DNA of 64,000 nt from an archaeon (GTDB lineage: Archaea > Nanobdellota > Nanobdellia > Woesearchaeales > GW2011-AR9), in contig JAUYKZ010000001.1 of the NCBI GenBank assembly GCA_030704845.1, positions 621 through 64,620 of the forward strand, read 5' to 3'. The notes beneath the pieces are model-generated. The model had not been told where the DNA came from, did no database searches, and was given only the letters and a program-made list of their open reading frames with translations. A program made the translations under genes and the position numbers. Of the stretch, positions 3,050 to 56,728 are shown in pieces. Numbering within the stretch: position 1 is the first letter of the stretch; each line of letters begins with the position of its first letter.

Positions 3050-6000
3050 ATGAAAACGACAAAAGGAAGATGGATGCGAATATTTTCTTTACTAGTTATC
3101 ATTCTATTTGTAAATCTTCCAATTGTTTCCGCCCTTGAGATATCAAATGTAAGGGCGGATAGTATCACCGAAACAAGTGCAGTCGTTAACTGGGAAACAG
3201 ATAGTAACGCTGACTCTTTTGTGAATTATGGACAAAGTAAAGACAATTTGGTATCAATTGGTGACGCATCCCAATTAATGAGTCATGCTCTTCCATTATC
3301 TGGCTTATCTTCAGATACAACTTATTATTTCTCAGTTGAAAGTAATAGTTTTGTAAGCGATAATGGTGGCGACTTATATTCTTTCAAGACGGCTGCTCCA
3401 GATACTGAAGCACCTCAAATTACTGCTGTCATTCCTGAATTTATTCAAGGAAGTAGATTAGATATAACTGGAAATGTCGAAACTGGTTCTCAGGTAAGAC
3501 TTTTCGTTAATGGTATTTTCTTACAAACGGCAAGTTCAGTTGCAGGCAAATTTACATTTCAAGGTGTATTATTAAAAGCAGATCAAGAAAATATTATTTC
3601 TCTTGAAGCAACTGATCCAGCTGGCAATTCTATGTCATTATCTGGAACCGTGTTTGCTGATACTTCTGCTCCTAAAATTACTCTCCCAGTAATCCCTGAA
3701 TTTAGTGATAGTAATTCATTTCAGTTGAAAGCCTCTTTATCTGAGAATTCCATGATTGAGATATTTAACGGTGATAAATCGGTTTCAAAAACTGAAGGAA
3801 CGTTAATCGATGTTACGATCTCTTTACAAGAAGGAGAAAATAATATCAAAATAGTTGTTTCTGATAAAGCTGGTTGGACTGCTGAAGAAAATTTTACGAT
3901 ACTCTCCGATACGAAACCGCCAACGATCACTTTCGATTTAACTAAAGGCACAGAATATTATGAAGGAAGAGCCGAAACGGATGTAACTGGTAAAACTGAA
4001 GCTGGCGCTAGTGTTTATCTTTACGTGTTTAGATCTTTCGGTGATGAATATAAAGCAGATTTCAAAAGAGCTTATGCGAAAACTATCGCTGACGAAAATG
4101 GCGAATTTAAATTCAGTGAGGTAAGTTTTCCTCCGCCTCCTTTTACAAGTATAACTGAACTTGCTCCAAGAGAAGTTCCAGCAGGATTACAAGAAGTATT
4201 AATTTCTCCTCTCGGTCTTATCGGGAATGAACAACGGAAAGGGTATAAAGTTTATTTGGTTGCGGAAGACAAATCAGGTAAAACTGCTTACGCTCAAAAA
4301 CAAATTAACATCAATACTTGTTTCTCGGCTGCAAGTGATTTCATTATTGATGAACAGATTCAGTTCCATGCTCCATTTAGGTTAGATCCGTCTTTAATGG
4401 AAGAAGGAAGAGAAGCAATTCAAGCTGTGTTTAATTTAAGTTACCGCGGAGATGCAATTGCTCCAATTAATACGGCTACAAATCAACCACAGGAAGCGTT
4501 CAGGATTCAAAGCGTAACATTCCAGAAAGCATGTACTCAAGCTATGTTGGATGAAGACGAATTTAAGTACGGATGTCAATTGTTGCCATCTTCATTAAGA
4601 TATCAAGCAAATGGAGATAAATCTGCTTATTATGTCACAGCTAATCTTAATCGAGCTTTAGATTTTATAGATAAGGAAGATAACGTTTGGGATGATTTCC
4701 AAAAACGTGAATTAAAAATGCCGGTGAAAGTAATTGTTAATTACCAAGAACGTGATGCTCAAGGTGGTTGGGAGCAACAGAAAACTCAAACTTCTTGTTA
4801 CGATTTAGGATATTTTGTTGATGTCCCAATAGAAAGTGAAAATTTAATCCCTGACTTTTTAGCAGAAGAAGGAGTAGATGCGCTTAATTTTACTATTGAA
4901 CAAATTGAAAATGTTAAACCTTACTTAAAAACAGCAATGATTGTTTCTGGTGTAAGTTGTATCGGTTCATTCTTGGTAAAACTAATTGCAAGATTATATA
5001 GAAATTTCATGGCAAACTTTGAACCTTGGTTAACTAGGATAAAAGGGGAAGATGAAAGATGTCCAAATATAGCTGGTCAAAATAAATTATATCTCGATAG
5101 CACAATTCAGCAATGGCAGGATTTGAAAAATCATCCTGAAGCAAATGGAAAAAGTGGTATTCCTGATTTAGATGCTGAAAAAAATTCTCTTAGTAAAAGA
5201 TGTCCGCAAACAGCAAGTGCGTGGGAAGTTGAGACTTATATCGATTTAGCGTATAGATTTACTTGTGACAGATTCTTCTGTAGATCTGTTCCAGCTGCTT
5301 GGACATCTAAAGAAACTGATGAAAAAATTCAAGGTGTTATCGCTGAACAAACCATGTGTACAGCTACCACTACCTGTTCATTCCTTGAACCAGTTGAGAA
5401 TTGCCAAGAGAAGTTGAAAACAAGTGTAGCTAACACCGAAAGAGCAAGAATATTGGAACAGGAAGGAAAATCTTTCACTTGTTATCTTAACAGACAGAAC
5501 GGATTATATTACACTGTTGAAGGAGATCCTCTACAAGAAGAACGGTTCATCTGGAAATTAGTCCCTGAAGAAACAATTAATAGTATTGGAACATTATCAC
5601 AACCAAATCTTCTTGCTTACAAACCAGAAGGATCACAGAACTTCTGTATCGCAACTGATTTAAGTTGTTCTAGTGCATGTAAACGAAAGAGTGGATATCA
5701 AGCGGTAACGGATGGATATACTTTAGAAAAACAAGGAGATAAAGTTGTTGTTGCAGGAAACGGCGGAGCTTGTTACCGTGAAGATCCAAAGGGGGATAGT
5801 ACAGTTCTAAGGAATGCTGGCGAAAATACTCTTCGTGATGCTGGCGGAGATAAAGTTGCTTTCGGATATACTAACGATTGTTTCGTTCAAGATCAGCCTG
5901 AACAATTATATCAATGTGTTTGTGAACCATCGAAAGCACAAGCTGGAGTTTCATTGAAAGGAGCAAGGGAAGCAGTTCGTGAAGTGAATGGTCAGACTGA

Positions 6001-8389
6001 AGAATGGGTATTCCGTCAAGATAGAGTTTATGCTGAATCAAAAGCAACAGCAGGAACGCATTACTCTAAAGATAGATATTATAGTGGAAGAGATTTCAGT
6101 GGAGCATTCGGAACAAATTATGCTCTTGATGCATTCAAGACTGAAGATTTTAGTACGGCAAGAGTCGATCCACATAACCAATTACTTGGAACTTTCCAAA
6201 GTATGTGTCTTCCTGGAATTTATGCAAGATTACAATTATTGCAAAGCATTTTGATGGGACTTAGAAATTGTATCATTGAAGCAAAATATACTGGATTCCA
6301 TGATGCAGGTATGTGTAAAACATTATTCACTCAATATGTCTGTGGTTTAATTTACAAAACAATATCTTATGCGGCAAGTAGTTGTTCACCACTTTCCTTG
6401 AAAGATGTTGGTGAAGATGATCAATTAAGTGCTATCGAAGCAGCTTTAGGTGCCGGTTCGAAAGCAATTCCTGCAACTTTAGATTCATCAATCCAAGAAG
6501 TGAAATCAGATTATGGAAATTCTGCATTAGATCAATATTTTGCATCCGGCAGTCAAGGATTTGCTGAATCGTTATGTTTAGCTGCGTTCGGTTATGACTT
6601 CCCTCTGGGCATGGACTTTATTCAAGATGCTGCTTACGCTTTCCCGACGGCGACAAATGTAATATTCCCAATTGCTGAAAGAGAATTGGCTACATTTGAT
6701 CCGGTGAAAGGAAGCGCGGTGTTCAATTATAATTTAGGTGGTACGATTCTTCCAGGTTGTAAAATTCAAAGTTATAGGACATCATTGAAATGTATCGGTC
6801 CAAATGATTTAGGTAAAGCTGGTGTTGATTGTTCCCAACAAAGTTGTGATTGTTTACAATCAACGGGAGATGTAACTGCCTTTGAAACTCAGAAATCATA
6901 TGTAATCCAAGGTGGAACTGGCGTGGGTGGTATTACTAAAGGACAGATGGTTGATCTTCCAATTCCATCGCCACAAAAAGTAACTAGTCCATTCAGGTAT
7001 GATCACGTGGTACTTGAATTAACTTTAGCTCAAGGAGAAAGTCCAGATACATGTTTCGATGAACAATATAGAACCGGTAACGGCGGAATTTTCTATTTCC
7101 CAATTCAAGATACTTCTCCTCCATTCGCGGTATCATGTCATGTGAACCTGAATAATGGTAAATTTGAATGTCCACAAATCAGTGCATTCTTTGGTGGAGG
7201 ACAAAGTTACTTCGAATACCCATTCATGCGTTGTGCGGATGCAAAGACGGGAGATTTCGTATCTTGTGATCAACCAAATCTTTTCATTAACAATGATCCA
7301 CAGAGAGATCAGATTGTGATTAAACCTTACTTAAATCTAGGAAACGAGAAAGCTTGTTTAAGAATTGAAGATGAAAGAAATTTAATTCAGCCGAGAATTA
7401 TTCCTCTTCCGGATGGTCTGCAAGGTCAGTATTCGCCGGTAATCACGTTAGGTCCAGTTACTGAGAATATGGTTTCTGGTGGTAGCGCAGCAACAATCAC
7501 CAAGAATACTGTGTTAAGCGATTCTGGGTGTGGTGGATTCCAGAACGGTGATTTGAATGTAATTACTCGTTCAGAAAAATCTGTAGCTAATACTAATTTA
7601 GAATTTAAATATGAAAGAAATGTTGAAGGATTGTATAAACTGGAAATTGGAACAACGGGAGTAACGTTAGATCCTGCTAGTAATAATAACAGATTTTTAG
7701 TAAATCAAAATAATGTTTGGAAAGGTGAAAAACAATTCATGACATTCCAAGAAGCTAACGAAGCAATTTTCTCTTATGAAGGATTTAGGTTCAGCAATGT
7801 ACTCGGTCAACCTATACCTAAAGTTGGTTCTGGTGGAAGTTGTATTTATCAAGCTCAATTCCCCAGATCGAATGTTGGACAAACTCAAGGCGGATTAAGA
7901 GTTACTGCTAAATTACTTCAAGCAGTTGGAGATAATTGTTATGAAGCAACTCAATTAATACCTAAATCTGATCTTGGTGTAAATCTCCACACTGAAAATA
8001 TTAGAATCCAACTTGAACCGGTTGAAGTTACGGTTGGTAAAAATCTTGCAGAAGATTTCTTTAACAGGAATTATGAAATTGTTTTAAGTAAAGCGGAAGC
8101 TATCGCTAAAAGAAAATCAGGTTCTTTAGAAGATGCGGAAGCTCTTTATTATTGGGTGTTGAGTTATGTTGCTCAGAAAGATGGCACAACTAAATATAAG
8201 GAGAATATAATCAGTTTACTTGATTTATTCTTCAAACGGGAAAGTAATCAAGGTAAAAGTGATCCTTACACGGAAGATGTTGTGAAGACCGGGGAGTATC
8301 AAATTGTTGAAAAGAATTTATGTTGTGTTGCAAAGAAGATTGGTACTGATAACAACTATGGTGTCTGTGAAGGGGTAGATTGTAAATAA
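3050..8389 (+). CDS. Giant secreted Cys-rich surface protein (1779 aa) with an N-terminal FN3/purple-acid-phosphatase-N-like domain and Ig-like repeats
   Basis: Uninterrupted 5.3-kb ORF with a signal peptide (MRIFSLLVIILFVNLPIVSALE). The ISNVRADSITETSAVVNWETDSNADSFVNYGQSKDNL segment matches the FN3/PAP-N consensus, followed by repeated ~90-aa beta-rich segments (ITAVIPEF..., ITLPVIPEF...). The C-terminal 1200 aa are very Cys-rich with no transmembrane helix. Confidence 0.8.
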   Translation: MKTTKGRWMRIFSLLVIILFVNLPIVSALEISNVRADSITETSAVVNWETDSNADSFVNYGQSKDNLVSIGDASQLMSHALPLSGLSSDTTYYFSVESNSFVSDNGGDLYSFKTAAPDTEAPQITAVIPEFIQGSRLDITGNVETGSQVRLFVNGIFLQTASSVAGKFTFQGVLLKADQENIISLEATDPAGNSMSLSGTVFADTSAPKITLPVIPEFSDSNSFQLKASLSENSMIEIFNGDKSVSKTEGTLIDVTISLQEGENNIKIVVSDKAGWTAEENFTILSDTKPPTITFDLTKGTEYYEGRAETDVTGKTEAGASVYLYVFRSFGDEYKADFKRAYAKTIADENGEFKFSEVSFPPPPFTSITELAPREVPAGLQEVLISPLGLIGNEQRKGYKVYLVAEDKSGKTAYAQKQININTCFSAASDFIIDEQIQFHAPFRLDPSLMEEGREAIQAVFNLSYRGDAIAPINTATNQPQEAFRIQSVTFQKACTQAMLDEDEFKYGCQLLPSSLRYQANGDKSAYYVTANLNRALDFIDKEDNVWDDFQKRELKMPVKVIVNYQERDAQGGWEQQKTQTSCYDLGYFVDVPIESENLIPDFLAEEGVDALNFTIEQIENVKPYLKTAMIVSGVSCIGSFLVKLIARLYRNFMANFEPWLTRIKGEDERCPNIAGQNKLYLDSTIQQWQDLKNHPEANGKSGIPDLDAEKNSLSKRCPQTASAWEVETYIDLAYRFTCDRFFCRSVPAAWTSKETDEKIQGVIAEQTMCTATTTCSFLEPVENCQEKLKTSVANTERARILEQEGKSFTCYLNRQNGLYYTVEGDPLQEERFIWKLVPEETINSIGTLSQPNLLAYKPEGSQNFCIATDLSCSSACKRKSGYQAVTDGYTLEKQGDKVVVAGNGGACYREDPKGDSTVLRNAGENTLRDAGGDKVAFGYTNDCFVQDQPEQLYQCVCEPSKAQAGVSLKGAREAVREVNGQTEEWVFRQDRVYAESKATAGTHYSKDRYYSGRDFSGAFGTNYALDAFKTEDFSTARVDPHNQLLGTFQSMCLPGIYARLQLLQSILMGLRNCIIEAKYTGFHDAGMCKTLFTQYVCGLIYKTISYAASSCSPLSLKDVGEDDQLSAIEAALGAGSKAIPATLDSSIQEVKSDYGNSALDQYFASGSQGFAESLCLAAFGYDFPLGMDFIQDAAYAFPTATNVIFPIAERELATFDPVKGSAVFNYNLGGTILPGCKIQSYRTSLKCIGPNDLGKAGVDCSQQSCDCLQSTGDVTAFETQKSYVIQGGTGVGGITKGQMVDLPIPSPQKVTSPFRYDHVVLELTLAQGESPDTCFDEQYRTGNGGIFYFPIQDTSPPFAVSCHVNLNNGKFECPQISAFFGGGQSYFEYPFMRCADAKTGDFVSCDQPNLFINNDPQRDQIVIKPYLNLGNEKACLRIEDERNLIQPRIIPLPDGLQGQYSPVITLGPVTENMVSGGSAATITKNTVLSDSGCGGFQNGDLNVITRSEKSVANTNLEFKYERNVEGLYKLEIGTTGVTLDPASNNNRFLVNQNNVWKGEKQFMTFQEANEAIFSYEGFRFSNVLGQPIPKVGSGGSCIYQAQFPRSNVGQTQGGLRVTAKLLQAVGDNCYEATQLIPKSDLGVNLHTENIRIQLEPVEVTVGKNLAEDFFNRNYEIVLSKAEAIAKRKSGSLEDAEALYYWVLSYVAQKDGTTKYKENIISLLDLFFKRESNQGKSDPYTEDVVKTGEYQIVEKNLCCVAKKIGTDNNYGVCEGVDCK

Positions 8390-8390
8390 A

Positions 8391-8957
8391 ATGTTGAAAC
8401 AAAAAAAAGGCGGGCTTGTAATTCAAGTTTTAGTATTGATGGTTCTGGTAGTAATTAGCAGCAGCGTTTTATTATTCCTAATTAATAAAGGCGTGATTAC
8501 TGTTAAAGAATCTGGACAAACAGAACCAATCCTTCAAGCAAATTTTTTACCAATCGCTAGAACTGGAACGGTGGCTGTTAAAGAATTTGCTTTCTGTAGT
8601 GATGTTAACGAAGATTTTGAATGTATCGGTCAGCGTTCACTGTTCCAGAAAGGAGATAAAGTTCACTTTAAGTTTGTTGTTGAAACTAATCCGTATGGGG
8701 GAGATGTCATCATTTTTCAGAATTACCGTTTAATTAATCCTAATGGGGTTATAATCTTGGAAGCTGAAGATATGAATAATTATCAGTATGATGCAAGAAG
8801 CGATAAAACATTGGAAGAAATAGTGTTTAAAGATTATATTATCACGGAAGAGAATGATATTCCTGGAACTTATAGGTTTGAATTACTTGTGAGCAATCCA
8901 TTATTAGAAAAGGATATAACTGTTACGGAGGAGTTCACTCTTGCTGGAAATGAATAA
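8391..8957 (+). CDS. Hypothetical membrane-anchored protein (188 aa)
   Basis: Starts 2 nt after the giant-protein stop. N-terminal transmembrane helix (LVIQVLVLMVLVVISSSVLLFLI). Overlaps the next gene by 17 nt, which suggests translational coupling. Confidence 0.55.
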   Translation: MLKQKKGGLVIQVLVLMVLVVISSSVLLFLINKGVITVKESGQTEPILQANFLPIARTGTVAVKEFAFCSDVNEDFECIGQRSLFQKGDKVHFKFVVETNPYGGDVIIFQNYRLINPNGVIILEAEDMNNYQYDARSDKTLEEIVFKDYIITEENDIPGTYRFELLVSNPLLEKDITVTEEFTLAGNE

Positions 8958-10647
8958 AATTTATTGGAAGAGAACTTTAGTATTACTTCTCCTACTTTCA
9001 ATAACATTAAGCATATCTGTATTTGCTGCAACTAAATCCCCTGAGGGATCAACAGCTAAGAGTATCAGTTTAGCTAGCGGAACAACTTGTAATAGTATCA
9101 CCCGATGTAAACAGATTCATCAAGCTTGGTTGCAGGTGTATGACTCTTTGGGTTACAGCAGGCTAGTGTTTAATCCGTCTTTAGGGAAATGGGTTAGTTT
9201 TGAGAGTGTTTATCTTCCCCAATTAGAAGATGCTCCATCTAGCACGGAAATTACCAATGAAGCAGAATCTTCAGAAGCAGTTAATCTTAATGAGATTAGT
9301 GGCAGGTATGCTGTTTTTATTAATGCTGCTGCTGGACATTTTGGAATCCAGCCGGCTTTAATTGCTGTTTTTATTAAGTATGAATCCGGGGGAAATCTTA
9401 AACCTTCCCCTACGGGTTGTCAAGGATTGATGCAGGTTTGTAACTGGAATGCTAATTATAATGGGTTCACCTCTGAGAATCCAAATATAAAAATTAAGGA
9501 TGATGCTCTCGATCCAGAAGCTAACATTTATGTGGGAACATACATATTGTCCCAGAAATTCAAAAGTGTTAGCGGATGTAAAGAAGGTAGTGATAGAATT
9601 AAATGTGTAATTGCAGCTTACAATGCGGGGGAAGGGCTGATTAATTATGCTACCAAGGGTTTTGAGGGTGAAGCAACTTGGCAGCAAGTAATAACCATAC
9701 TTCAAAATGAAGAGTTTGTGAAGGGATTAAAAGCATATTCTGATGAAAGATTTTGGATTAATTCGAATGGAGTAAACCAAACTTGGACTGATTCAGTTTC
9801 ATGTCAAGGTTTTAAAGATAAGGTTACTAGAAGAGGATGCAAGATGTACAATTTACAGTTTTATGTGAATAAAATCTTTGCTTCTGTATATGGAGCTTCT
9901 CAAGAACAGACTTCTTCAAGTGATGAAACAATTGCTACGGCAAGTGGCGTCGGTAAGAAAGTCTTACTAATTGGAGACTCTCATACGGCAGGTTATTATG
10001 GGGAATTACTCCATAACTCTTTGGTTAATGTAAATTATGAAGTGAGAACTTATGGTTGTGGTGGAAAAGTTGCAACAGCCTTTGCTAACAACAGGGAGGT
10101 TAGTTGTAGTCTGTCTTACAAATGGATTGGTAATGAAAAAACCTTGCTAACAAAACTCACTCCTAATTTTTTCCAGACTGAAATTAATTCATTCAATCCA
10201 GATATCGTTGTAATCAGTCTTGGGACAAATTATTGGCTCAGAGAAAGTAGTATTGCTAATCCAGGAAGCGTACATTATGCTTCTGTAAATTCATTATTGG
10301 ATAGTGCTCTAGGAAAAACTTGTTATTGGGTTGGGGCACCAGTGTCAACTATTAAATTTGGAGATAGTAAATTGAATTATGATGGTACTTGTACCAAAAA
10401 CCATCCCAATGATTATGAAACTAGTTGTTCTCTGGTGAATATACCTGGAATAAATCGGGGAGATATATACGATTATAATTTAGTTAATACAAATCTAAGA
10501 AAACTAGTTGAAGATAAAGGATGTAACTTTATAGACCCAACGCAGATTGCTGGTTTAACGGAAGATAAATTAAGAGACAAGTTACATTTTAATAATGACG
10601 GTTATACTATCTGGGCAAACTACGTCTTCAAGAAGATAATCAAGTAA
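8941..10647 (+). CDS. Secreted lytic transglycosylase (SLT domain) fused to a C-terminal SGNH/GDSL-type hydrolase domain
   Basis: Signal peptide is present. The SLT motifs are YESGGNL...GCQGLMQV and AYNAGEG. The C-terminal half carries the GDSH block (LLIGDSHTAGYYG) and the distal block (HFNNDGYTIWANYV) characteristic of SGNH hydrolases. Confidence 0.75.
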   Translation: MLEMNKIYWKRTLVLLLLLSITLSISVFAATKSPEGSTAKSISLASGTTCNSITRCKQIHQAWLQVYDSLGYSRLVFNPSLGKWVSFESVYLPQLEDAPSSTEITNEAESSEAVNLNEISGRYAVFINAAAGHFGIQPALIAVFIKYESGGNLKPSPTGCQGLMQVCNWNANYNGFTSENPNIKIKDDALDPEANIYVGTYILSQKFKSVSGCKEGSDRIKCVIAAYNAGEGLINYATKGFEGEATWQQVITILQNEEFVKGLKAYSDERFWINSNGVNQTWTDSVSCQGFKDKVTRRGCKMYNLQFYVNKIFASVYGASQEQTSSSDETIATASGVGKKVLLIGDSHTAGYYGELLHNSLVNVNYEVRTYGCGGKVATAFANNREVSCSLSYKWIGNEKTLLTKLTPNFFQTEINSFNPDIVVISLGTNYWLRESSIANPGSVHYASVNSLLDSALGKTCYWVGAPVSTIKFGDSKLNYDGTCTKNHPNDYETSCSLVNIPGINRGDIYDYNLVNTNLRKLVEDKGCNFIDPTQIAGLTEDKLRDKLHFNNDGYTIWANYVFKKIIK

Positions 10648-11132: not shown

Positions 11133-11185
11133 TTTGTAATTTTATGTCCTAAACCTTTATATATTTTATGCGAAAAGATAGACAA

Positions 11186-11986
11186 ATGCCAGAACTTCCA
11201 GAGGTGGAAACTGTCGTTAGACAATTACGGCAGAAAGTACTTGAAAAGAAAGTGGTCAATGTTGAGGTGTTTGATCCTAAAGTAGTAGACACTCGCCTTC
11301 AACAATTAGCTCCTTTTAAATTTAAAAATATCACCCGGAGAGGCAAATCTATCATCGCTTCTTTAGATAATGATAACTATTTAATCATTCAATTAAGGAT
11401 GACTGGTCATTTTTATTACGTTCCTAAACTTCCTTCATCAGATACACATAACGAACATCTAGCTGCCGTATTTCATTTCACCGATAAATCTATTTTAACT
11501 CACAATTCTATTCGTCGTTTTGGAAAGATTCAATTAGCAACAAAGAAAGAAGTTGATGAATATGTATCTAAGCTAGGTCCTGAACCGTTAGAAATGACTT
11601 CGAGCGAATTTATTTCATCTTTACAGAAAACTCCCTCAGCTGTTATCAAAAGTAAACTTCTCGAACAAGATTGCATTGCGGGAATTGGTAACATTTACGC
11701 TCAGGAAGCATTATATCACGCTAAAATTCTTCCTTCTAAAAAGATAAATCAAATTTCAGAGTCACAATTAACAAAATTACACAAAGAATTACAAAGTGTT
11801 CTTCTTAAGTCAATCGAACATAATGGGAGTACTGTTTCTAATTATACCCACATTGCTGGTAAAGGCGAATTTCAGAATTTTCTTGCAGTTTATCAAAAAG
11901 ATAAATGTCCAAAGAGTCATAAAATCCGAAAAGTACAAATAGGAGGAAGAAGTACCTACTATTGTAAAGACTGTCAAAAATCATAA
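11186..11986 (+). CDS. Fpg/Nei-family DNA glycosylase (formamidopyrimidine-DNA glycosylase-like)
   Basis: Met-Pro-Glu-Leu-Pro-Glu-Val N-terminus (catalytic Pro2), a helix-two-turn-helix region, and a C-terminal zinc finger CPKSHKIRKVQIGGRSTYYCKDCQ. The start is placed at the MPELPEVE Met rather than the upstream ATG at 11168. Confidence 0.8.
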   Translation: MPELPEVETVVRQLRQKVLEKKVVNVEVFDPKVVDTRLQQLAPFKFKNITRRGKSIIASLDNDNYLIIQLRMTGHFYYVPKLPSSDTHNEHLAAVFHFTDKSILTHNSIRRFGKIQLATKKEVDEYVSKLGPEPLEMTSSEFISSLQKTPSAVIKSKLLEQDCIAGIGNIYAQEALYHAKILPSKKINQISESQLTKLHKELQSVLLKSIEHNGSTVSNYTHIAGKGEFQNFLAVYQKDKCPKSHKIRKVQIGGRSTYYCKDCQKS

Positions 11987-14658: not shown

Positions 14659-14806
14659 GCCCCAGTGGCTCAGCGGTTAGAGCATTCGGCTGTTAACCGG
14701 AGGGTCGTCGGTTCAAAACAGATCTCCCGGATCTGGTAGAGGGATTCGCGGTCACTCGCGTTCCCGCTCATAAGATTTGGAGATTGGGAAAGTCCGACCT
14801 GGGGCG
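14659..14806 (+). tRNA. tRNA-Asn (anticodon GUU) with a ~74-nt intron in the T-loop
   Basis: Acceptor GCCCCAG/CUGGGGC, D-arm GCUC-AGCGGUUAG-AGC, anticodon stem-loop UUCGG-CUGUUAA-CCGGA, variable loop GGGUC, T-stem GUCGG...CCGAC. The T-loop (UUCAAAA...U) is interrupted by 14719-14792. The intron ends can pair (CAGAUCUCC with GGAGAUUG), which is BHB-like. Confidence 0.75.
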
Positions 14807-14915
14807 CTCATTTGGGGGATAATATCCCCCTCTTTTTCTAAGATTATCGGTTCGTTATAGATAATTCTAACAAAATAAAGAAACATTTATATATCCTCAC
14901 TGCTGAGTAATAACT

Positions 14916-18109: not shown

Positions 18110-18652
18110 ATGTCGAGCTTAAATCAACAAGAACCTGAAGAAAATGGCGGAGAATCTCCTAAAAATGAAGGAGAAACATCGTCTGATGAACTGAACGAAC
18201 TGAAAGAACTTCTCCAACGAACGCAGGCAAATTTTGAGAATTATCGAAAACAGACTGAGAAGCGGGTTGAAGAAATGATTCAAATAGCTACAAAAGGAAT
18301 AATCGCTCAAATTTTACCAATTCTTGATAATTTTGAGTTGGCCTTACAAACTGCTGAAACATCTTCGGAACAACCAGAATTCGTTCAAGGAATTACTTTG
18401 ATTCATTCCCAGTTAACCAAAACTCTCAAAGATAACGGGGTTAAAGAAATTAAGGTAGAAGGAACATTTGATCCGCATATTCATGAAGCATTAATGAAGA
18501 TGCCTTCGGAACTTCCAGAGAATTCAATCGTTGGGATTATTCAGAAAGGTTACACTCTTCATGGTAAGCTTTTACGTCCAGCAAGAGTAACATTAAGTGC
18601 AGGACAAATAAAATCAACAGACGAACAGAACAAAACTAAAAATAAAAACTAA
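18110..18652 (+). CDS. grpE: Nucleotide exchange factor GrpE
   Basis: Coiled-coil N-terminal region (ELKELLQRTQANFENYRKQTEKR) and a C-terminal beta-domain. Position is immediately upstream of dnaK. Confidence 0.85.
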   Translation: MSSLNQQEPEENGGESPKNEGETSSDELNELKELLQRTQANFENYRKQTEKRVEEMIQIATKGIIAQILPILDNFELALQTAETSSEQPEFVQGITLIHSQLTKTLKDNGVKEIKVEGTFDPHIHEALMKMPSELPENSIVGIIQKGYTLHGKLLRPARVTLSAGQIKSTDEQNKTKNKN

Positions 18653-18685
18653 AAATAAAAACTAATAATACTGGAGGAACATACA

Positions 18686-20557
18686 ATGACAAACGAACAA
18701 AAAGTAACAGGAGCAACAATTGGTATCGATTTAGGTACTACATTCTCTGCAATGGCAGTACTTGAAGGTGGAAAATCTACAATTATTACAAATTCTGAGG
18801 GAACAAGAACAACCCCAAGCGTAGTTCATATTAAAGATGGGGAAGTTATCGTCGGACAAATTGCCCGAAACCAGGCAATTATCGATCCAACTCATACCAT
18901 TAGATCTATTAAAAGAAAAATTGGAACTTCAGAGAAGATTAGGATAGATGATAAGGATTATACTCCTGAACAAATATCTGCAATGATTCTTCAGAAATTG
19001 AAACGGGATGCGGAAGCATATCTCGGTCAACCGGTAAAAAATGCGGTAGTTACCGTTCCAGCTTATTTCAATGATTCTCAACGTCAAGCAACAAAGAATG
19101 CTGGTGAAATTGCCGGTTTAAATGTTTTAAGAATTATTAACGAACCAACTGCTGCATCGTTAGCATATGGTTTAGATAAACAAGAAACAGAACATACTAT
19201 CTTAGTATTTGACTTTGGTGGCGGTACTTTTGACGTATCTATCCTTGAACTAGGAGATGGTATCTTTGAAGTAAAATCCACTAGCGGAGATAACCTGCTT
19301 GGTGGAGATGATGTTGATACCTTAATCATGGATTGGATTATGGGAAATTTCAAAAATTCAACCGGTATTGATTTAAGAAATGATCCTACAGCTATTCAAA
19401 GATTAAAAGAAGCTTCAGAGAAAGCTAAGATTGAATTATCTTCAAAGGCAAAAGTAGAGATAAGTATTCCATTTATCACTGCAGATCAGAATGGTCCAAA
19501 ACATATCAAAGAAGAATTGTCTAAAGCAAAATTCGAAGAATTAATTTCAGACATCTTAAGACGATTAGAAGGACCTGTTAAACAAGCATTGAAAGATGCA
19601 AGTTTAACTCCAGATAAACTTAATAAAGTAATTTTTGTCGGCGGTTCAACAAGAATCCCGGCTGTACAAGATTTAGTTAGAAAAATTACTGGCAAGGAAG
19701 GAGATAAATCTGTAAATCCGGATGAAGCTGTTGCAGTTGGTGCGGCAATTCAAGCGGGAGTTATCTCTGGGGATATCAAAGATGTTCTCTTACTTGACGT
19801 AACTCCATTAAGTTTTGGAATTGAAACTCTTGGGGGAGTATTCACAAAATTGATTGAAAGAAATACTACGATTCCGACAAAGAAATCTCAAGTATTCTCA
19901 ACAGCTGCCGATAATCAGCAAGCGGTAACAATCAGAGTTGCGCAAGGTGAACGTTCAATGTTTAATGATAACAAACACCTTGGTCAGTTCGATCTAATGG
20001 GAATCCCACCCGCTCCGCGAGGTGTACCTCAGATTGAAGTAGCTTTCGACATTGACGCTAACGGGATACTTAATGTAAGCGCAAAAGATATGGGTACTGG
20101 TAAAGAACAAAAAATCAAGATTACTGGTTCAAGTGCATTAAGTAAAGATGAAGTTGAAAAGATGCGACAAGATGCAGAACAAAATGCTGCTGACGATGAA
20201 AAAAAGAAAGCTAAAGTTGAAGCAGAAAATAATGCGGATGCAGTAGTTTATCAATCAAGAAAAGTCTTGGAAGAATTTAAAGATAAAGTTAACGAATCAA
20301 CCAAGACCAAAATTGAAGCAGCAATTGAAGCTGTTGAAAATTCCCGTAAAGATGGGAATGCTGAAGTGATTAACAAAAAAATTGAAGAATTAAACAAACT
20401 TATGCAGGAAATCGGTACTCAAATGTATCAAGAAGCTGCAGCACAACAACCTGAGCAAACTTCAGGAGAAGAAACGACTGGAAGTAATGCAAAAGATGAA
20501 AACATTGTTGATGCAGAGTTTAAAGAGAAAAAAGAGAAAAAAGAAGAGAAAGCTTAG
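18686..20557 (+). CDS. dnaK: Molecular chaperone DnaK (Hsp70)
   Basis: [26 protein letters not shown] and the substrate-binding domain motifs; 623 aa. Confidence 0.95.
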
Positions 20558-38272: not shown

Positions 38273-38440
38273 GGCGATGTAGCTAAGCCTGGCAGCGAGA
38301 AAGCAGAGCTTTCTAAGTTTCCCTGCTTTCGCTGGGAAATTATAGCGCAACGCTCATATATATTGAGCGATGAGACATTATATGTCGATGACTAGCTTTG
38401 GGCAACGTTGAGGTCGCGTGTTCAAATCACGCCATCGCCA
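38273..38440 (+). tRNA. Intron-containing class-II-like tRNA (Ser/Leu type); anticodon and intron positions unresolved
   Basis: Acceptor GGCGAUG/CAUCGCC, a 3-bp D-stem with the archaeal AAGCCUGGC D-loop, T-arm GCGUG-UUCAAAU-CACGC. The gene is 168 nt, so it must contain about 80 nt of intron(s). A long alternative helix (AGCGAGAAAGCAG with CUGCUUUCGCU) competes with a simple anticodon-arm reading. Confidence 0.5.
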
Positions 38441-38449
38441 CTTCCTTAC

Positions 38450-38551
38450 GCCAACGTGGCACAACTCGGTACTGCGCAAGCCTGGAACTCAGGAAAGTAT
38501 CAGCGAGCTTGTTTCCTTCGGGATATCCCGGTTCAAATCCGGGCGTTGGCG
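38450..38551 (+). tRNA. tRNA-Ser (anticodon GGA) with a canonical 18-nt intron after position 37
   Basis: Acceptor GCCAACG/CGUUGGC. D-arm GCA(C)-AACUCGGUA-(C)UGC. Anticodon stem CAAGC/GCUUG with loop CUGGAA-[CUCAGGAAAGUAUCAGCG]-A. Class II variable arm UCC-UUCG-GGA. T-arm CCCGG-UUCAAAU-CCGGG. Confidence 0.7.
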
Positions 38552-38617
38552 CTCCTTTTTCTTCGAAAAATTAGATAAAACCGCAACTTTTTTAAACAAC
38601 TGATATTCCTTAAACAC

Positions 38618-41498: not shown

Positions 41499-41658
41499 CG
41501 GACCCGGGAGGACTTTCCCAGTCTCTCTAGGAGATCTGTTTTGAACCCCCGACCTACAGCTCTCTTCCATATTGGTAGGAGGCTGTCGCCCTATTTGGCT
41601 CACGCCTAATTCTCTCTTTTGGAGAGAATTATAGGTATCCAGTCTAGGCTACGGGTCC
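41499..41658 (-). tRNA. tRNA-Arg (anticodon CCU) with three introns (D-loop, anticodon loop, T-loop)
   Basis: Minus-strand read: acceptor GGACCCG/CGGGUCC. D-stem GCCU/GGGC enclosing about 55 nt, including an 8-bp hairpin AUUCUCUC/GAGAGAAU. Anticodon stem ACAGC/GCUGU with loop CUCCUA-[CCAAUAUGGAAGAG]-A. T-stem GGGGG with loop UUCAAAA-[CAGAUCUCCUAGAGAGACUGGGAAAG]-U. 160 nt minus about 86 nt of introns gives 74 nt. Confidence 0.65.
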
Positions 41659-56609: not shown

Positions 56610-56728
56610 GGGCTTGTAGTATAGTGGATAGTACGGCCGGCTTCGGGAAGTGGAAGTATTGTCTTCACTTGCAGTCACCGGCTAACCGGGGTTCGAATTT
56701 GAAAAAAACGAAAGTCCCTGCAAGCCCA
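56610..56728 (+). tRNA. tRNA-Arg (anticodon UCG) with two introns (30 nt after position 37; about 17 nt in the T-loop region)
   Basis: Acceptor GGGCUUG/CAAGCCC. D-arm GUAU-AGUGGAUA-GUAC. Anticodon stem GCCGG/CCGGC with loop CUUCGG-[30 nt]-A. T-region CGGGG-UUCGAAU-[UUGAAAAAAACGAAAG]-(U)CCCUG. Confidence 0.7.

Follow-up and report, generated by a model that had tools for sequence, protein, structure and literature searches.

A strongly conserved and apparently undescribed intron family in the T-loop of archaeal tRNA genes

Introduction

Why are transfer RNA (tRNA) genes of different identity on one archaeal contig interrupted at the same place in the T-loop, by insertions that end alike? The question arises from a 64,000-nucleotide (nt) stretch of contig JAUYKZ010000001.1 (GenBank assembly GCA_030704845.1), hereafter the window, in which the genes for tRNA-Asn, tRNA-Arg(CCU) and tRNA-Arg(UCG) each carry such an insertion. 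A sequence-only reading of the window had interpreted these insertions as a family of related, possibly mobile introns at position 59/60 with a conserved splice-site context. Based on the analysis reported here, we consider it very probable that they are protein-spliced archaeal tRNA introns at 59/60, and that the intron of tRNA-Asn is one of a family which has spread through Woesearchaeota-type tRNA genes.

Archaeal tRNA introns at non-canonical positions, which carry a bulge-helix-bulge (BHB) motif, are cut by the endonuclease EndA and are ligated by RtcB, were reportedly described by Marck and Grosjean in 2003 and by Sugahara in 2008. The cutting of such introns by EndA and their ligation by RtcB have been reviewed (PMC4090602, PMC4033280).

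Results

Three tRNA genes interrupted at position 59/60

The tRNA-Asn(GUU) gene (14659-14806, plus strand) contains a single intron, at 59/60, which divides the T-arm: the T-stem strand GTCGG (14707-14711) and the T-loop TTCAAA (14712-14717) lie at the end of the 5′ exon (14659-14717), and T60 (14793) and CCGAC (14794-14798) lie in the 3′ exon (14793-14805), which is followed by the discriminator base at 14806. The intron (14718-14792, plus strand) is 75 nt long, ends in ...GGGAAAG and is a full-length member of the family described below. The tRNA-Arg(CCU) gene (41499-41658, minus strand) is interrupted by three introns, one of 44 nt in the D-loop, one of 14 nt at 37/38 and one of 27 nt at 59/60. 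Its T-arm consists of GGGGG (41550-41546), TTCAAA (41545-41540), T60 (41512) and CCTCC (41511-41507), and the 27-nt T-loop intron ACAGAUCUCCUAGAGAGACUGGGAAAG (41539-41513) again ends in ...GGGAAAG. The tRNA-Arg(UCG) gene (56610-56728, plus strand) has two introns, 30 nt at 37/38 and 17 nt at 59/60; here CGGGG (56687-56691) and TTCGAA (56692-56697) precede the T-loop intron UUUGAAAAAAACGAAAG (56698-56714), which ends in ...CGAAAG, and T60 (56715) and CCCTG (56716-56720) follow it. The T-loop introns of both tRNA-Arg genes scored 9/10 for a BHB motif, a value that serves as a consistency check only, as many false sites score equally high with the naive scanner that was used.

After in silico excision at 59/60, ARAGORN called tRNA-Asn(GTT), tRNA-Arg(CCT) and tRNA-Arg(TCG); the Asn(gtt) call was made on the identical L001 copy. 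With the 44-nt and 27-nt segments removed, tRNA-Arg(CCU) was called as tRNA-Arg(cct) with a 14-nt anticodon-loop intron, and removal of the T-loop intron from tRNA-Arg(UCG) gave the output tRNA-Arg(tcg) i(40,30). These calls and the reading of the sequences confirm the proposed location of all three insertions.

The 44-nt D-loop intron of tRNA-Arg(CCU) starts after G at gene position 20, and its removal as a single intron leaves a canonical D-arm. An alternative with four introns in this gene, in which the D-arm insertion is split into 28 and 15 nt, fitted the BHB motif less well and was rejected. The paper on tRNAscan-SE 2.0 gives three as the maximum number of introns per archaeal tRNA gene.

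The shared junction and the BHB motif

All three insertions lie between positions 59 and 60, the sixth and seventh nucleotides of the T-loop, and GAAAG is followed directly by U60-C61-C62 in each of them, as had been claimed. The identical starts and pairing ends proposed for the Asn and Arg(CCU) introns were also borne out: CAGATCTCC is found at just two places in the window, the 5′ ends of these two insertions, and forms a helix with GGAGATTG in Asn or GAGAGACTG in Arg(CCU) that leaves one base bulged. The bare 8-mer GAAAGTCC is not enriched in the window (four matches versus 2.1 expected); three of its four copies lie at the identical T-loop/T-stem junction of tRNA genes, and it is this structural position that is non-random.

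The T-arm shares the architecture of the anticodon arm; position 59/60 therefore corresponds to 37/38, and U54-U55-C56-R57 corresponds to positions 32-35. It follows that an intron at 59/60 must end in Y-G-A-A, which pairs with R57-C56-U55-U54, and then in two bulged bases. GAAAG before U is thus mainly a structural requirement and is not in itself evidence of common descent. Because the T-loop partner is nearly universal, the junction is conserved and a single intron sequence can fit any tRNA.

In the mechanism we propose, the T-stem (49-53:61-65) would be the outer helix of the BHB, and U54-U55-C56-R57 would pair with the Y-G-A-A at the intron 3′ end to form a central helix of 4 base pairs (bp). 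The last two intron bases and N60 would make up the 3′ bulge, A58-A59 and the first intron base (i1) would make up the 5′ bulge, and pairing of the two intron termini (CAGAUCUCC with GGAGAYUG) would supply the inner helix. Cleavage by EndA in both bulges, followed by exon joining by an RtcB-type ligase, would yield UUCRAAU; in tRNA-Asn, the predicted joint runs from ...GGUUCAAA to UCCGAC....

The family members have the elements of this geometry in order: T-stem, a bulge of A and G with U60, the helix UUCR:YGAA, a bulge of A58 and A59 with i1, and the intron helix. In tRNA-Asn (plus strand), U54-A59 is at 14712-14717, with U54-U55-C56 as the 5′ strand of the central helix and A58-A59 plus i1 as the 5′ bulge. 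The 3′ junction, G(-6) G-A-A A-G before U60, is at 14787-14793; GAA (14788-14790) pairs with C56-U55-U54, A-G-U (14791-14793) forms the 3-nt 3′ bulge, and G(-6) stands opposite A57 as an A·G mismatch. All four central-helix pairs are present in tRNA-Arg(UCG) and most relatives.

In a model-based alignment of the family, the pairs U54:A, U55:A and C56:G were present in all 29 copies; being invariant, these three UUC:GAA pairs carry no information on covariation. Compensatory change was found at the fourth pair of the central helix, between position 57 and intron base -6. A raw count over 26 introns gave A:U in 14, G:C in seven and A·G in five, with no other combination, and the model-based alignment gave 15, seven and four, respectively; G57 never stands opposite U or G. 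The T-stem pairs show 8-14 double changes each.

Unconstrained minimum-energy folds of most members contained the T-stem, a 4-5 bp helix, a 3-nt bulge (A, then G, U or C, then U60 or C60) and a long rod. The T-arm of tRNA-Arg(UCG) folded unaided into the T-stem, the 4-bp UUCG:CGAA helix and a 3-nt AGU bulge. The Asn intron with its T-arm folded at -35.5 kcal/mol (z = -3.2), and in the minimum-energy fold of the whole Asn pre-tRNA, the acceptor stem and T-stem were retained and the intron projected as a rod.

The claim of a conserved splice-site context holds for GAAA, which is invariant throughout the family, but not for the bases around it: the last intron base is G, U or C (A in the short intron L107), and position 60 is U or C. 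The sequence-only reading had named T-loop introns lacking the junction as a finding that would count against it; all of those found end in GAAA plus one base before U or C. Many copies end in C-GAAA-G or U-GAAA-G, and an excised intron, especially if circularised, could close as a GNRA tetraloop on the rod; copies with U or C at -1 do not fit, and we note this only as a lead.

Extent and hosts of the intron family

We scanned one genome per species for the 18-nt junction pattern GGTTCRAANCAGATCTCC, for which we estimated ~139 chance matches; the matches were mainly bacterial, consistent with this expectation, and those in Methanoregulaceae and Bathyarchaeota proved not to be tRNAs. Nine loci were genuine, from five metagenome-assembled genomes (MAGs) of Woesearchaeota/Nanoarchaeia: JAGVYN01 (four loci), PFNQ01, JACOZM01, DATDXI01 (two loci) and JABHXC01. 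At eight of the nine, an insertion of 75-77 nt almost identical to the Asn intron lies in the T-loop, and the tRNAs concerned differ. A metagenome scan with a pattern for the intron core, which left the 5′ and 3′ parts unspecified, returned 92 stretches; about half were genuine copies, each in a T-loop.

A covariance model of the T-arm, BHB and rod (R1) was then run over the 372 kb of collected loci. It identified 29 distinct full-length copies at 58-108 bits, one of which the core pattern had missed. The Asn intron scored 95.7 bits (expectation value (E) 1e-24) over 14707-14798. The short introns (window Arg(CCU), window Arg(UCG) and L107) scored 22-30 bits, with 24.1 bits (E 0.0018) for Arg(CCU) and 21.7 bits (E 0.009) for Arg(UCG), the latter driven by the T-arm and junction. 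R1 found no family copy outside tRNA T-loops in the 372 kb, and its reverse-strand matches are weak palindromic echoes of the same loci.

The family is 73-77 nt long and is present in at least five Woesearchaeota/Nanoarchaeia MAGs and ~35 metagenome contigs. Host tRNAs, identified by ARAGORN or by reading of the anticodon arm, include Asn, Ser(GGA, UGA, GCU), Gly(UCC), Leu and Arg(UCG, UCU), among others; ARAGORN recognises 24 of 30 family members after excision. Without exception, the 29 full-length copies and the short variants occupy 59/60, and the occurrence at different positions that marks Thermoproteales-type families was not found. A generic search for T-arm insertions in the collected archaeal loci likewise returned only this family and its short variants, all at 59/60. 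In viral contigs, scans with the core pattern and with the 5′-strand pattern gave one match each, both in coding-looking sequence unrelated to tRNAs. The search of relatives that the sequence-only reading had suggested thus uncovered a family far larger than could be seen from the window.

At two loci, L043:885-985 (JACOZM01) and L195:1872-1963, the tRNA halves flanking the intron are mismatched, such that the T-stem and acceptor strands are not complementary. Their 3′ halves equal those of other tRNAs, which could mean either that the assembly is chimeric, joined through the 75-nt repeat, or that intron copies have truly recombined.

We conclude that the 75-nt Asn intron is a member of a strongly conserved family that occupies one site across many tRNAs. 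The family is apparently undescribed; a full-text literature search, with most subscription journals outside its coverage, returned no description of such a T-loop intron family.

Structure and conservation of the long form

The consensus begins with 0-3 nt followed by CAGAUCUCC C AGAUCUGG UAG GGGGAUUCGCGGUCAYUCGCGUUCCC GCUCAUAAG, and continues after GCUCAUAAG as (AGAUYUG)(GRRGAYYN) YGAAAG. In the Asn intron (plus strand), segments A (CAGATCTCC) and B (CGGATCTGG) at 14719-14736 form a near-invariant 5′ rod strand with two AGATCT-type palindromes. The conserved core at 14741-14774, a hairpin (GGGATTCGCGGTCACTCGCGTTCCC) and then GCTCATAAG, occurs once in the window, and segments C and D (AGATTTGGAGATTG) at 14773-14786 form a variable 3′ rod strand that pairs with B and A. 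Individual folds agree on a long irregular hairpin, in which A:D and B:C pairing leads through a small junction into a GC-rich hairpin. In the model-based alignment, 92.4% of cells pair in the proposed structure, versus 85.7% in shuffles, with 0 of 500 reaching it, and 32-52% with partners slid by 1-3 columns; these values favour the structure, although they are biased towards it by the fitting of the alignment.

Mean pairwise identity was 0.89 for the hairpin, 0.96 for GCTCATAAG and 0.50 for segments C and D; the invariance of the hairpin comes partly from the search pattern, and the metagenome scan placed no selection on A, B or GCUCAUAAG. The hairpin shows a compensatory change from G:C to A:U in L087 and G:U variants elsewhere. 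Changes in segments C and D are mostly wobble-neutral and affect one side of a pair (G:U to G:C or A:U).

A local A:B hairpin, formed by the AGAUCU palindrome, was favoured by RNAalifold on a MAFFT alignment; in individual sequences, however, it is on average ~6 kcal/mol less stable than the rod, and we demoted it to a possible alternative fold. In contig L138, however, the two copies have the double change CAGGUCU...AGACCUG, whose halves compensate each other exactly in the A:B hairpin.

Between genomes, identity is 90-93% over the first ~57 nt, 96% in GCUCAUAAG and ~50% in segments C and D, whereas in the same Ser(GGA) orthologues the canonical introns at 37/38 reach only 48-55%. Set against these diverged canonical introns, the conservation of the 5′ core suggests either purifying selection or horizontal movement. 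Pairing alone does not explain an invariant 5′ strand facing a drifting 3′ strand.

No Rfam family matched the intron at gathering thresholds or at E up to 10, with either the window or a focused 191-nt query. We rejected a group I or group II self-splicing intron on this result and on length, 75 nt being far too short, and we rejected a box C/D or H/ACA guide because the consensus has no such boxes and no snoRNA family matches the intron. Readings of the core as a kink-turn (K-turn), a loop-E motif or a tRNA fragment were dropped on inspection by eye. The likeness of CUCAUAA to the anticodon loop of tRNA-Met was set aside as well, as it has no closing stem.

Gain, loss and short derivatives

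The tRNA-Ser(GGA) gene of the window (38450-38552, plus strand; Rfam tRNA, 42.7 bits) has an uninterrupted T-arm and serves as an empty-site comparator. It reads CCCGGTTCAAA followed directly by TCCGGG, and at precisely this point, between A59 and U60, 75 nt are inserted in its syntenic orthologues of L004 and L201; a gene beside tRNA-Ser(GGA) is 72% identical between the compared loci. The uninterrupted orthologue shows exactly the T-arm predicted for the spliced product. Judged from these sequences, the difference is a precise gain or loss of the intron.

Copies within a genome also resemble one another. L138 has copies in two different tRNAs of one contig (8075-8166 and 12625-12716), and L004 and L033 have near-identical copies. 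The double substitution common to both L138 copies suggests concerted evolution or recent copying within the genome. In the window, the Asn and Arg(CCU) introns both end in UGGGAAAG, which is lineage-specific; their first 10 nt are identical (10/10), and 12 of the last 13 match. In DATDXI01, the short intron L107 matches the long copy L086 over its first 12 bases, with 3′ ends GUCAUUGAAAA and AUCAUUGAAAG, respectively. In both genomes, then, the short intron resembles both ends of its own genome's long copy, a pattern that would fit copying within the genome and then internal deletion, and the 27-nt Arg(CCU) intron looks like an internal-deletion copy of the family. The syntenic presence/absence at Ser(GGA) and the lineage-specific features of same-genome copies lend support to the suggestion that the introns are possibly mobile.

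The 17-nt Arg(UCG) intron has only the structurally forced CGAAAG in common with the others, and is at most a putative member of the family. It could be a decayed remnant or of independent origin; the tRNA-Arg(UCG) of DATDXI01 carries a full-length copy (L086) at the same 59/60 site, which makes a remnant plausible. The claim that all three introns are related therefore stands for Asn and Arg(CCU), with the 29 full-length copies in its favour, but not for Arg(UCG).

Other tRNA genes and context of the window

The canonical intron of the window tRNA-Ser(GGA) has standard BHB geometry, in a pairing worked out by hand: positions 32-35 pair with intron bases -3 to -6, and the bulges consist of 36 and 37 with i1 and of -2 and -1 with 38. 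Only 8 nt upstream, such that the two genes form a tandem pair, is a tRNA with anticodon CAU (38273-38441; elongator Met or Ile2, with G1:C72 and no G3:U70), which has a D-loop intron of 43-46 nt and a ~46-nt intron at 37/38. The intron mode of ARAGORN mislabels this pair as Tyr-ata and Ala-ggc. The D-loop intron of tRNA(CAU) (38294-38339) ends in ...CUGGGAAAU before U, resembling GGGAAAG before U in the T-loop introns; it is otherwise unrelated, and its end does not show the same pairing with the upstream exon. The likeness is possibly a coincidence.

All five tRNA genes within the window are interrupted. ARAGORN with default settings reported no tRNAs in the window, and the Rfam tRNA model aligned the tRNA-Asn gene only at 14664-14725, its upstream part. 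Directly 3′ of tRNA-Asn (14807-14840), a perfect GC hairpin (GGGGGATAATATCCCCC) and a T-rich run form a terminator-like element, which is conserved with one change in the close relative L159.

The window has a G+C content of 34.6%. Several of its open reading frames (ORFs) are 56-82% identical to ORFs on contigs from, or syntenic with, ‘Candidatus Woesearchaeota archaeon RIFOXYD1_FULL_40_14’, and L159, a JGI metagenome contig, has ~94% DNA identity to the window over 14.6-20 kb. Archaeal-type proteins encoded in the window include a PAC2 proteasome chaperone, a pyruvoyl arginine decarboxylase, a short TIM and a DUF483 protein. From these similarities, and not from a classification, the source is inferred to be a Woesearchaeota-like DPANN archaeon. 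Bacterial-type content is present at 3050-10647, 11168-11986 and 18110-20557; it comprises a GrpE-DnaK pair, Fpg/MutM, an ORF of 1779 amino acids with a weak match to the purple acid phosphatase N-domain and an ORF with SLT lytic transglycosylase and GDSL domains.

Discussion

The GAA:UUC pairing fully explains the shared motif, and three unrelated BHB introns could each have evolved GAAAG to pair with UUC, with neither a family nor mobility involved; the 17-nt Arg(UCG) intron, which has nothing but CGAAAG in common with the other two, is what such convergence would give. The Asn and Arg(CCU) introns, however, match at both of their ends well beyond the forced GAA, and the Asn intron resembles 28 other copies (58-108 bits) that share a ~57-nt core outside the BHB. 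Convergence is thereby already refuted for these two introns, and as an account of all three it is improbable. A second alternative places the mobility at the DNA level, in a transposon resembling a miniature inverted-repeat transposable element (MITE), with terminal inverted repeats and a preference for the T-loop, and makes the RNA structure incidental. The inverted-repeat ends (CAGATCTCC ... GGAGATTG) contain AGATCT palindromes, copies occur in many genes with differences in presence and absence, and in TTCGAA T-loops the insertion is flanked by the direct repeat TCGAAA...TCGAAA. We rejected this repeat as a target-site duplication, as TTCAAA T-loops are matched by a 3′ end of TTGAAA, which is the complement and not the duplicate and fits RNA pairing. 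Orientation and register relative to the tRNA do not vary among the copies, none of which lies outside a tRNA in the 372 kb of loci; no transposase is associated, and an unspliced DNA element in the T-loop would inactivate essential tRNAs; we regard such a transposon as highly unlikely.

Even less likely is that the interrupted genes are pseudogenes, or that their products retain the T-loop expansion unspliced, although standard tRNA finders do fail on them. Their exons are intact and form canonical cloverleaves once the insertion is removed, covariation in the T-stems is that of functional tRNAs, and BHB geometry is conserved across genomes; moreover, with every tRNA gene in the 64 kb interrupted, the pseudogenes would include Asn(GUU), normally the sole Asn isoacceptor. 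The least likely explanation is that the similarity of the copies is an artefact of assembly or binning, through a repeat that was collapsed or chimerically joined. The mismatched halves at L043 and L195 look as if assemblers had jumped across the 75-nt repeat, but copies with matching exon halves are held in independent assemblies from many projects and sites, the variable 3′ segment differs from copy to copy, and in each the T-stem is complementary across the insertion.

Several observations weigh against protein-spliced introns of a spreading family. In Asn and Arg(CCU), the central helix has three Watson-Crick pairs plus A57·G, a relaxed form of the motif. The constrained BHB folding that had been proposed as a check gave a mixed result: the constrained Asn fold lies 1.2 kcal/mol above its minimum-energy fold, but the isolated Arg(CCU) T-arm favours another fold over the BHB by 3.6 kcal/mol. 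Only the T-stem, the 57:-6 pair and a small number of hairpin pairs truly covary, and most rod pairs change on one side. The alignment was gathered by sequence patterns and fitted to a model of the proposed structure, which inflates both the conservation of the selected segments and the fraction of paired cells. Neither EndA nor RtcB was found among the 20 window ORFs (150-220 amino acids) scanned against Pfam. The analysis establishes the anatomy, the pattern of pairing, the distribution of the family and the difference in presence at Ser(GGA); actual cleavage and ligation, the way in which the intron spreads and the reason for the conservation of its core are what we infer.

If protein splicing holds, the Asn intron and its relatives would be mechanistically ordinary archaeal BHB introns at a known non-canonical site. 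Like other archaeal BHB introns, they are short, have two 3-nt bulges around a 4-bp helix and can occur several to a gene; hosts of the known systems have broad-specificity endonucleases. Unlike those introns, these form one conserved family at the single site 59/60, with a 3′ end complementary to the universal T-loop. This site is an established BHB junction in the permuted tRNAs of Thermofilum pendens and Cyanidioschyzon merolae (PMC3218864), where the same T-loop position is processed; the intervening sequences there are short (7 nt and 1 nt in T. pendens) and are not a conserved cis-intron family. The closest parallel in behaviour is the ‘intron transposition’ of Thermoproteales, in which near-identical introns occur in different tRNAs within and between genomes (Fujishima et al. 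2010, via PMC4090602 and PMC4033280), implying recent gain at the DNA level by a mechanism of spread that is unknown (PMC4090602, PMC4033280). Highly similar introns in tRNAs of differing identity and presence/absence among orthologues are features of both systems. However, related introns in Thermoproteales, which belong to TACK, occupy the canonical and various non-canonical positions, whereas the family described here uses 59/60 alone, has DPANN hosts, consists of longer, rod-shaped introns and retains its ~57-nt core between genomes whose compared proteins are 56-82% identical.

Disrupted tRNA genes together with a loop-bearing EndA are known within the same superphylum, from ARMAN (epsilon2; PMC3239211) and from an alpha4 enzyme with an L3 loop (PMC5829648), and DPANN archaea with both a loop-bearing EndA and heavy tRNA gene disruption are reported to include a Woesearchaeota MAG (PMC5829648). 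These two sources report many non-canonical or multiple introns and tRNAs missed by predictors, and in the portions consulted they describe no conserved T-loop intron family (PMC3239211, PMC5829648). The family is thus distinct in four ways: one site, built-in complementarity to the T-loop, a DPANN host and a structured core conserved across genomes.

The box C/D guide in haloarchaeal pre-tRNA-Trp is a functional tRNA intron. The intron described here is likewise conserved beyond the needs of splicing, which suggests a function for the intron RNA, but unlike that guide it has no C/D or H/ACA boxes, no K-turn and no Rfam match. We offer tentatively, as a possibility that we think doubtful, that the ~57 invariant nt on the 5′ side (comprising two AGAUCU palindromes, the GC hairpin and GCUCAUAAG) serve as a functional module and not as filler. 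Such a module might be a recognition or propagation element, making this a self-spreading BHB intron specific to the T-loop; alternatively, it might act in a stable, probably circular, rod-shaped RNA that is released from many tRNA precursors and has its own function in the cell. Either way, the universal T-loop would be a generic docking site.

Pairing with the universal T-loop UUC would provide a mechanistic account of how one intron can live in any tRNA, and hence a concrete, testable model of archaeal tRNA intron multiplication, a question open since the ‘transposition’ proposal for Thermoproteales. For this lineage, the tRNA counts that enter into estimates of MAG completeness would be badly underestimated. 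The T-loop intron family also explains why tRNA genes in DPANN genomes escape standard predictors; a covariance model of the family would recover these genes and improve the completeness estimates. A core at 90-96% identity beside randomised canonical introns points to an unrecognised functional or selfish RNA element in these poorly studied archaea.

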